A stretch of DNA of 64,000 nucleotides from Candidatus Bathyarchaeota archaeon (lineage in GTDB: Archaea; Thermoproteota; Bathyarchaeia; Bathyarchaeales; Bathycorpusculaceae): contig CAVRFW010000001.1 of assembly GCA_963720565.1 (NCBI GenBank), forward strand, positions 22,823 through 86,822, given 5' to 3'. Positions within the stretch are counted from its first letter, which is position 1; each line of letters opens with the position of its first letter. Below, piece after piece: positions 54,001 through 57,000 of this stretch. The position numbers were made by a program.

Positions 54001-57000
54001 CCCTGGGACTTTCAGTCAGACACACGAGGAGACATTTTCTGGCGATACAGAAGAAACCAGTCTGACTGGCTCAGAGCACATAATTACCTAACGCTATAAG
54101 GAATAGAAGGATGAGTAATGTTGAGGCAAAAACGATCAATAGGCGAATATCTTGCTTTCCTGACCGTAAAATATGAAGTCGACCCAGAGAAGTTTCTTAG
54201 TGCCCTGCGCTTGGCTAGAGAACAGGGAAAAACAAATTGTGAAAGTCTCTCGATTGAGTTTAGGGGTAATGTAAACAAACAACATATTTTCTTGGTTAGG
54301 AATAAATCGGGTGTTGTTGCACAATTTCGAGTTCCTGACGAGTTTCTCTTGGAAAAGCAAAATTCCCTCGGTAAATTCATCGATGCAACCATGCTTCGCA
54401 GGGTCTTGTTTCAGAAATGCAAGGGAGTTCGAGTTCACAGCATCAGTGACTTAAGAGCGGGAATGAGTCACGTCAACCTCAGGGCTAAAATCTTGGAAGT
54501 TGCAGAACCAAGGCGTGTTGTTACAAGATACGGGAACTACGCCAACATAGCTAAAGCACTAATATCGGATGATACGGGAACAATCAAGCTGTGCTTATGG
54601 AATGAACAAATAAACGCAGTTACTGTAGGGGAAACCGTACAAATTGAAAACGCCAGAACGTCCACCTTCAGAGGAGAAAAACAGCTAACCCTTGGAACAA
54701 AAGGAGGGGTTAGCAACGACGGTGATTCAAGATTGAACGAAGTCACCTGTCTGCATCCGAATTGAAATCCAGGTTTGATGATTTTCTGGTTTAGTATCTG
54801 AGTGATTGAAATAATGATAATAGTAAAATGCGTGGAATGCGGAAATACTTTCAAGATCAACGTCCCTATCGAGGGCGAACTCGTCGCCTGTCCTGTATGT
54901 GAGGCAGATTACACAGCAATCATAAAAGATGGAAAAGTTCAATTGAAAGACTTCGTCTATGAAAGTGAAGATTTCGGCGAACTTTAAACTATTACTATGA
55001 AGAGGTGATGCTTGATTTGGACAAATGGGAATACAAGGTTGTCCCAATAAAGACGCGGATTCACACGGACTACTCTGAGAGAGGCAGCAAACCGGTGATG
55101 GAGGATGTTCAAAACGACCTGAACGCATTGGGCGAAGAAGGTTGGGAACTAGTCTGCATTCAAGACATTAGAATGCCAGGCGAAAGACTGTTTACCGTGG
55201 CCTACCTTAAGAGGCAAAAAACACCAGCATAGAATACAATTCTCAAAAACAAGAGCCTCATTAATGACCATCTAATAACATCCGAACCGGGCAGCATACA
55301 CGACTTGACCATCAAGTAAAACAATTAGTGAATGGATAATGATTGGATTTTGAGTAGAGTAGTTTATTACCCGATACAACCATACTTCACTGCTGGGTAC
55401 GAGCATGCCGAAGAAAAATGTTGGATTTAGAAAGTTAACAGAAGAAGAGGAAGAAGTTATAATTCATAAAGGGACGGAAGAACCTTTCACTGGCAAGTAC
55501 TTCGCCTTTTGGGAACATGGCACCTACGTTTGCAAGCGTTGTGGAACACCACTCTACCATTCTGAAAGCAAATTTGACCCAGGTTGCGGCTGGCCGAGCT
55601 TTGACGAAGAGATATCAGACACTGTCAAGAGAGTTCCTGACGCTGATGGTGTCCGGACTGAAATTCAATGCGCAAAATGCGGAGCACATCTTGGCCACGT
55701 TTTTATCGGAGAAAACTTAACCAAAAAGAGTACGCGACACTGTGTAAACTCCATCTCTATAGAGTTTGTTCCTGCAAAATAGAACAAATCTAGTTAAGAA
55801 GTTGTTCATCAACTGTTGGCACCTCGAAAGAGTTATAGACAAAACATAGCAAAATCTTATGCAAAACGAAGGCATTACAATGGCTGACCTGTTTGGAATC
55901 GACCTCCAAGTAATATTAGACGTGGTAATAATCGCGGCAGTTGCCATAATTCTCGAAAGGCTAATCGCGTTGTATCTGTCGCGTTTCGCCAAACGCCTAA
56001 AGCTAGACCGCAGTGCGAGTAACAATATTGTTCTCACATTCCGAGTCCTCATTCTAATTGGTGCCCTTCTCGCACTAAGCCGCGTGGGTGGATTGCAGTC
56101 TGAATGGATTGTATCCATTTCCGCAATAGGAGGTGCTGCCCTGGGTTTTGCATCACAGAAGACCCTTGGCAATTTTATCGCTGGACTATATCTCTTGGCT
56201 GCAAGACCCTTCAGCGTTGAGGATTACGTTCGCATCGGAACGGCGGAGGGAATAGTCCAGGAGATCACGATTAACTACACCAGGTTGCTTACAATAGGCA
56301 ACAACATCGTGGCGATAAGCAATCTGCAGATTCTCGACAGGGACATAACAAACTACACGTTGCACCAAACGAAACACTTAGACCTCAATTGCTACACTTT
56401 TGAAATAGGATTTAACCACGAAATTTCAACAGAGAAGATAGCCCAAATATTCGAAGAAGTCTTCAAAATACACACCCACTTGCTGCCTAAGAAACCAAGC
56501 TACATGTTAACGCGTTCGTCAGCCTTTGAGCGCGTTTATGTGGTCTATCTTTACGTTGAACACCCGGAGGATATCTTCGTCTTGAGACCTCAGATCGCCG
56601 AAGAAGTGTTCGAGCGCTGGGACAGAGAAAGAGAAAGAGCAAATACCCAAATACAAACAGCCCAGTAATTATGAAAAAGAAGAGGATGAACGATGGCTAA
56701 TAAAAAGAAAACCGAGAATCTCATGGCGCAAGCCGTTAACCTATCCGACCTTGTTGAGTATCAAGAAGGTTCAGTGGTAAGTCGCACTATAGTTGACAAG
56801 AAAACAGGAACTGTGACGCTGTTTGCTTTCGACGCTGACCAAGGACTAAGCGAGCACAAAGCCCCATACGACGCCATAGTCTACATCTTAAACGGCGAAG
56901 CGGATGTGATTATTTCTGGCAAACATGTTCGCTTAAAAGAGGGCGAAATGACAATAATGCCAGCGAACGAGCCACACGCTCTTACAGCTCTGACGAGATT

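Follow-up and report, generated by a model that had tools for sequence, protein, structure and literature searches.

We asked what the two-domain SSB encoded at 54118..54765 (+) does. The gene lies in the window, the 64,000-nucleotide stretch of a Candidatus Bathyarchaeota archaeon contig that was analysed. In the source records, such two-domain proteins are named 'replication factor A1' or hypothetical. Open reading frame and alignment with relatives define a protein of 215 aa; the TTG at 54121 is homologous to the start of the relatives, and the ATG at 54118 lies one codon earlier. The gene was said to follow an aIF1A paralog, and so it does: the second of two aIF1A genes in the genome (53794..54099, +) is the first gene of the predicted transcript and ends 18 nt upstream. 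On the other side lies a LysW-like zinc ribbon of 61 aa (54802..54987, +), a recurrent partner of the second aIF1A.

Our profile and ORF survey of the genome agrees with the count of four two-domain paralogs and two single-OB SSBs given in the genome-wide survey's note. Four proteins combine an N-terminal domain (N-domain) with an OB fold, and the single-OB SSBs have 98 aa and 185 aa, the latter with a glycine/arginine tail. A 287-aa protein, similar to Pyrococcus Rpa1 starting at its N-terminus (E 9e-18), is a true AROD-Rpa1 and a separate gene. An SRP RNA gene lies directly 3' at the own paralog on contig C9 (L072:4710-5025) and at locus L011; the two cases are sister sequences. Elsewhere in the window, three genes named by eye appear to be broken into consecutive ORFs by frameshift or assembly error: a cation-diffusion-type transporter (48060-49437), an MFS-type transporter (59222-60663) and a zinc dehydrogenase (57111-58146).

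The OB fold is of the crenarchaeal SSB type (54442..54717, +; residues 109-200, from Pfam, Foldseek and alignment). The Pfam Ssb-like OB family (PF21473) matches residues 115-198 with 42.4 bits against a cut-off of 24, and Pfam recognises nothing N-terminal to it, as expected from the earlier claim that an uncatalogued domain precedes an SSB-type OB. The best sequence match is a crenarchaeal single-OB SSB (E 1e-16), SsoSSB (1O7I) ranks first in Foldseek (E 4e-9), and human SSB1 is also among the best structural matches. The Pfam matches of the OB are SSB/RPA-type families only, with no CSD or TRAM domain. Each two-domain protein has one OB, unlike the several-OB chain of Rpa1. A quick tree built from 88 columns of 148 OB domains puts the 106 two-domain OBs together on one side of a branch (SH-aLRT 99).

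With the crenarchaeal single-OB SSBs (SsoSSB, 1O7I/2MNA, and SisSSB; PF21473, PRK06461) the family shares the OB fold and two of the base-stacking aromatics, and those SSBs are dispensable and have a proposed RNA-chaperone role, too. On the other hand, the two-domain proteins have an extra 95-aa N-domain and no long tail, occur in multiple copies, and stay far below the cut-offs of the PRK06461 models, none of which they reach (77 vs 176 bits). SsoSSB is reported to bind DNA and RNA alike by stacking bases on W56, W75 and F79, and to melt an RNA hairpin (PMC5346138). In the window protein W161 and F184 are equivalent to W56 and F79, positions that are aromatic in 106/106 two-domain OBs. R180 replaces W75, where an aromatic residue is absent from 100/106 two-domain OBs (present in 6), whereas all 42 single-OB SSBs have one; this loss could mean weak binding of any strand. 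An extra aromatic, Y138, has counterparts in 99/106 two-domain OBs and in 18/21 short SSBs. Furthermore, the two-domain OB is more basic (median charge +5 vs -1 and 0 in single-OB SSBs).

Next, we looked at the gene neighbourhood. Among 123 loci, the recurrent neighbour clusters include CxxC-x17-CxxC proteins, a DEAD-box helicase, YHS, Alba, aIF1A and small zinc proteins. We counted six markers (CxxC-x17-CxxC, DEAD, YHS, Alba, aIF1A and TRAM) around the 79 two-domain loci that remained when 4 duplicates and 28 short-flank loci were dropped. A marker lies within 1.5 kb in 59/79 of them, compared with 3/19 tailed SSBs and 2.6% of random places, in line with the neighbours that had been described; note that some of the markers were chosen from these very loci and that, since the genomes are related, kinship inflates these figures and those on co-occurrence and composition, so that the counts overstate independence. 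For N-only or split genes the count is 4/6 and for short SSBs 12/21, all TRAM, so the neighbourhood is not unique to the two-domain family. The link is weaker in the distant loci (a marker within 3 kb in 14/38, many at contig ends), and the own paralog on C2 has no marker within 3 kb. The CxxC-x17-CxxC and YHS proteins are not known to act on RNA (PMC12704099 demonstrates zinc binding only), which counts against reading the neighbourhood as a chaperone module. The genome studied here has seven CxxC-x17-CxxC matches.

Two further gene arrangements were seen. In 12/21 loci of the short, 100-aa single-OB SSB (L144, L146, L147, L150, L152 and others) a stand-alone TRAM gene lies about 35-120 nt 3', and since TRAM adjoins it this often, the short SSB may be an RNA chaperone too. 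In aIF1A-2 operons without an SSB (L315-L318, L325), the LysW-like ribbon is accompanied by a conserved ORF of 175-190 aa, sometimes then by CxxC-x17-CxxC.

The DEAD-box helicase also co-occurs with the family. It is present in 213/301 class genomes, including 156/170 of those with the N-domain (N-positive); 156 genomes have both, 14 the N-domain only, 57 the helicase only (among them 32/34 genomes of one family) and 74 neither. In the window's own family (n = 137) the respective numbers are 104, 7, 6 and 20. There, the second aIF1A is found in 67/111 N-positive vs 1/26 N-negative genomes.

The N-domain profile, built from 68 sequences, was run against these 301 class genomes of at least 90% completeness. 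It matched in 170 of them, with 1 to 8 matches per genome, and 131 were without it. The pattern is patchy: the own family has it in 110/136 genomes, two other families in 3/23 and 0/34, and entire genera are without it. The family had been described as spread over Bathyarchaeales; this is true, but its range is wider, since 31/100 genomes of other orders are positive and the family is thus class-wide. Outside the class, a 301-genome sample of the phylum gave one genome with a weak match, located in an unrelated enzyme, and 45/46 named loci are from Bathyarchaeia. At locus L093, a Bathyarchaeia gene cluster stands on a contig filed under an Acidobacteria genome and is probably mis-binned. A search of 1.84 billion proteins with the profile gave 276 clusters (50% identity). 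Of these, 150 were listed, each shorter than 290 aa; 52 have an OB fold and 98 do not, and many of the latter are probably fragments.

The composition of the N-positive genomes points to a lower growth temperature. In hand-chosen samples across genera (at most 20 kb per genome), 20 N-positive and 20 N-negative genomes have a CvP of 4.5 vs 10.6, an IVYWREL of 40.9 vs 42.9 and an (E+K)/(Q+H) of 2.6 vs 3.8, with overlapping values; some N-positive genomes look thermophilic (CvP 10-14). CspA was not found in the own genome (89% complete), nor PC4 in 201 genomes of the phylum.

Upstream of the second aIF1A lies a conserved 5' leader hairpin of 72 nt (53665..53736, +) that is common to module operons. 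About 24 nt further upstream there is a conserved TAATAT-type box (53635..53643, +), which, to judge from its spacing, is probably the TATA element of a module promoter. The 141-nt leader of the window's aIF1A has a folding z of -4.0, and the hairpin has no match in Rfam. By its stem pattern we found it in 34 distinct N-domain loci, some led by aIF1A, some by a small unnamed ORF and some by the SSB gene. In an alignment of 27 hairpins, picked by this pattern, a selection that favours pairing, 99% of the cells pair; the changes are mostly G-U wobble, with one compensatory pair. A covariance model matched in 15/27 N-positive and 0/14 N-negative genomes. Seven of its 17 matches head an operon with a two-domain gene (one in the training set), seven stand before aIF1A-2 without an SSB, two before other module microproteins, and one is ambiguous, so that at least 16/17 are upstream of module genes. 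As for weak matches (E 0.2-1; 23 loci), 5/7 are directly upstream of an SSB gene, including two own paralogs; the 14 control loci gave one unrelated match. An unbiased 100-nt fold test upstream of two-domain genes gave z ≤ -2 in 2/37 cases vs 9/150 in the background, so it revealed no structure at most of these genes, which counts against the chaperone reading.

Other leaders in the module are structured as well. The helicase gene has a 5' leader of about 90 nt with an inner hairpin and a closing stem that ends at the Shine-Dalgarno site (L081, L089, L092, L123 and others; in the own genome on C6 near 87100-87200, -). In this stem 140/144 cells pair, a TATA box is present in 18/24 upstream regions, and the leader is a candidate thermosensor. 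CxxC-x17-CxxC leaders carry a short hairpin with covariation upstream of the ribosome site (28/50, with 5 compensatory pairs), and at many loci another conserved stem lies upstream of Alba genes. An unnamed ORF, basic and of 63 aa, occurs between hairpin and SSB or alone behind the hairpin (L016, L080, L084, L090, L320); it has no Pfam or NCBIfam match, and the promoter at these loci lies inside a perfect 7-bp inverted repeat.

Among 126 two-domain genes whose start codon is fixed by the alignment, 89 start with TTG (a few of them with an ATG 1-3 codons upstream), 25 with ATG and 4 with GTG, while the genome-wide share of TTG is roughly 30%. Six have an ATA, ACG or CTG start and no standard in-frame start, and each of the six belongs to the 30 loci in which the gene follows aIF1A. 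Bacterial infC is subject to a start-codon stringency feedback. By analogy, a similar feedback via the second aIF1A is possible; aIF1A is reported to have a role in start-codon selection (PMC7531240). For the SSB gene, translational coupling is the duller reading. Divergent from the operon, a run of genes at 52049-53396 (-) comprises a CxxC microprotein, a zinc ribbon, a 214-aa HExxH ORF without Pfam match and eL33/L35Ae. The microprotein (53259..53396, -; 45 aa) has no Pfam match and is conserved beside the aIF1A-SSB operon. The zinc-ribbon gene (53056..53262, -; 68 aa) starts at a conserved AUA preceded by a strong Shine-Dalgarno-like run (ATA in 11/12 homologues, ATG in the twelfth); ORF callers will cut it short or overlook it.

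The N-domain (54139..54420, +; residues 8-101, from an AlphaFold2 model and alignments) is, as modelled, an uncatalogued, well-predicted alpha/beta domain with a four-stranded sheet. The model predicts helices at residues 8-18 and 23-36, strands at 38-41, 44-52, 55-62 and 65-73, a helix at 74-78, and linker helices up to residue 101; R49, Q69, K18, A33 and F58 are conserved in alignments. Against PDB sequences its profile gave a single match (CsgE, E 0.35). In structure comparison residues 30-87 resemble PUR/PC4 units, with scores such as common meanders also reach (rmsd 3-7 A). Compared to the four-strand-plus-helix unit of PUR, PC4, MRP-Whirly and SsgA, the N-domain adds two N-terminal helices and has no sequence signal, as PUR/PC4/Whirly profiles are absent among the matches listed (25 of 37 Pfam families; 68 members, E ≤ 1). 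Four loci have a genuine stand-alone N-domain gene (112-121 aa) and lack an OB fold altogether, and in two further loci N-domain and OB are in different frames. Separately, we note that L009, L060 and L123, where the two domains are not in one frame, are frameshifted or split copies or assembly errors, and that at L041 a DEAD-box helicase gene follows 183 nt after a stand-alone N-domain gene.

Potentially, the protein could be a specific regulator of the module instead of a general chaperone, which we consider rather unlikely. The N-domain and an RGRP-bearing arm would bind specifically to the TAATAT promoter or the leader hairpin, be it open-complex DNA or RNA, and the OB would hold the melted strand, so that transcription or translation of aIF1A-2, of the SSB gene itself and of the microproteins is controlled. 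An AT-hook is an RGRP core with basic flanks that binds the AT-rich minor groove, and the RGRP motif, possibly such a core, is present in 29/43 distant loci, with a GRP at fixed distance in 27/31; the box is AT-rich and, in either promoter type, forms part of short DNA palindromes. The stand-alone N-domain genes (3/4 with the RGRP/GRP motif), the leader element, which was found in N-positive genomes only and also precedes aIF1A-2 and other module genes far from an SSB gene, and the likeness to PUR and PC4, which are strand-melting transcription factors, point the same way. An action of SsoSSB on RNA polymerase has been reported as well (cited in 10.1101/2023.07.06.548054). However, the window's clade is without RGRP, and so is the clade richest in leader matches; no AT-hook or HTH Pfam family was found in 7 motif-bearing or stand-alone members (E ≤ 0.05 for AT-hook), and HTH_10 matched only 1/68 N-domains (E 0.03). 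Furthermore, the N-domain core has little net charge (median +1), 12/27 N-positive genomes have no leader match, and as many as 8 matches in one genome would be just as natural for a chaperone family. A bolder version, which we hold to be unlikely, is that the N-domain is a new nucleic-acid-reading fold acting on the promoter-leader element, and that the protein governs a cold regulon of these archaea with start-codon-stringency feedback (second aIF1A; genes with conserved AUA, ACG or CUG starts). If true, this regulon would be what the CspA, CsdA, IF1 and IF3 system is in bacteria, made from different parts.

It is improbable, in our view, that the protein is an accessory ssDNA-binding protein of repair or recombination, similar to hSSB1, with the N-domain as a protein-interaction module and a neighbourhood that reflects shared stress induction only. 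The structural matches to SsoSSB and human SSB1 and the conserved W56 and F79 equivalents would fit. In S. acidocaldarius the SSB is reported to serve mutation avoidance and recombination, its deletion raising the mutation rate (PMC10003305), which also counts against an RNA-only role. Archaeal Rpa1 (Pyrococcus 8AA9/8AAJ) likewise has a non-OB domain, AROD, directly before an SSB-like OB, both domains have stand-alone forms, and AROD is reported to regulate DNA binding (PMC10122647). But AROD is described there as an acidic three-helix bundle, whereas the N-domain is alpha/beta, and profile comparison with 18 Bathyarchaeia AROD sequences (hhalign) found no similarity (probability 0.15%, E 0.4). 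Moreover, no repair or replication gene is among the recurrent neighbour clusters of the 123 loci, and the family is missing from many genomes and entire genera, while single-OB SSBs are present in all but one of 25 genomes searched. Finally, that the OB is a weakened scaffold and the protein mainly an adaptor joining helicase, aIF1A-2 or zinc microproteins at the ribosome is very improbable: the lost W75 aromatic and the tight gene spacing to Alba, YHS and aIF1A (35-150 nt) agree with it, but the OB is more basic than in single-OB SSBs, and gene order and partner vary from locus to locus, so co-regulation fits better than a fixed complex.

We therefore lean, with modest confidence, towards the two-domain SSBs being a Bathyarchaeia clade of ATP-independent RNA chaperones in a dispensable module for sub-optimal temperature, together with the DEAD-box helicase, the second aIF1A, Alba, the CxxC-x17-CxxC and YHS microproteins and TRAM. 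They probably help to unfold RNA below the growth optimum, and not to copy DNA, because their genes travel with cold-shock-type RNA genes and a common RNA hairpin. The RNA-chaperone rather than replication role proposed in the genome-wide survey's note is thus partly supported: it is backed by neighbourhood, co-occurrence, composition and leader, by the absence of CspA among the genes found and by the presence of a true Rpa1, and weakened by the helicase that often occurs without the family, the lost W75 and the looser link in distant loci. The OB would bind single-stranded RNA, probably with lower affinity and a larger electrostatic share than in single-OB SSBs, and may melt hairpins like the Sulfolobales SSB. 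The sheet of the N-domain carries R49 and Q69, and the domain's N-terminal arm is basic, with RGRP in distant members; the domain might be a second nucleic-acid contact or a dimer module and steer the OB fold to stems. The structured 5' leaders of mRNAs from the module itself would be among the likely substrates, in which case SSB, helicase and second aIF1A would keep initiation going on folded leaders.

Several reports are consistent with such a role. SisSSB is described as dispensable and cold-induced, and as melting RNA and replacing E. coli Csps (10.1101/2023.07.06.548054; PMC10684826). For archaeal DeaD homologues, induction at temperatures below the optimum is reported (PMC3590241), and in a cold methanogen stem-loops have been proposed to mask ribosome sites (PMC5378194). 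Stand-alone TRAM and CspA chaperones are likewise small OB-type proteins, reported to unfold 5' leaders without ATP (PMC6705878; PMC5572242), and share the neighbourhoods; the two-domain SSB, on the other hand, belongs to another OB family, TRAM and CspA are single-domain, and TRAM is mostly beside the short SSB. A full-text search of literature with few subscription journals gave no paper on the two-domain family, the module or the leader, and a term search in selected RPA/SSB papers, including PMC10684826, found no mention of Bathyarchaeia.

The SSB classification of Xiao et al. (Fig. S6A) may be relevant to the two-domain family. Bathyarchaeia are among the most abundant sediment archaea, and over half of the class genomes searched (170/301) carry the uncatalogued domain. 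The finding bears on which archaeal SSBs serve DNA and which RNA. A conserved leader RNA and near-cognate starts beside an extra initiation factor make start-codon control in archaea testable. In summary, the locus is part of a candidate module for keeping translation working in the cold, and its parts can be tested in E. coli.
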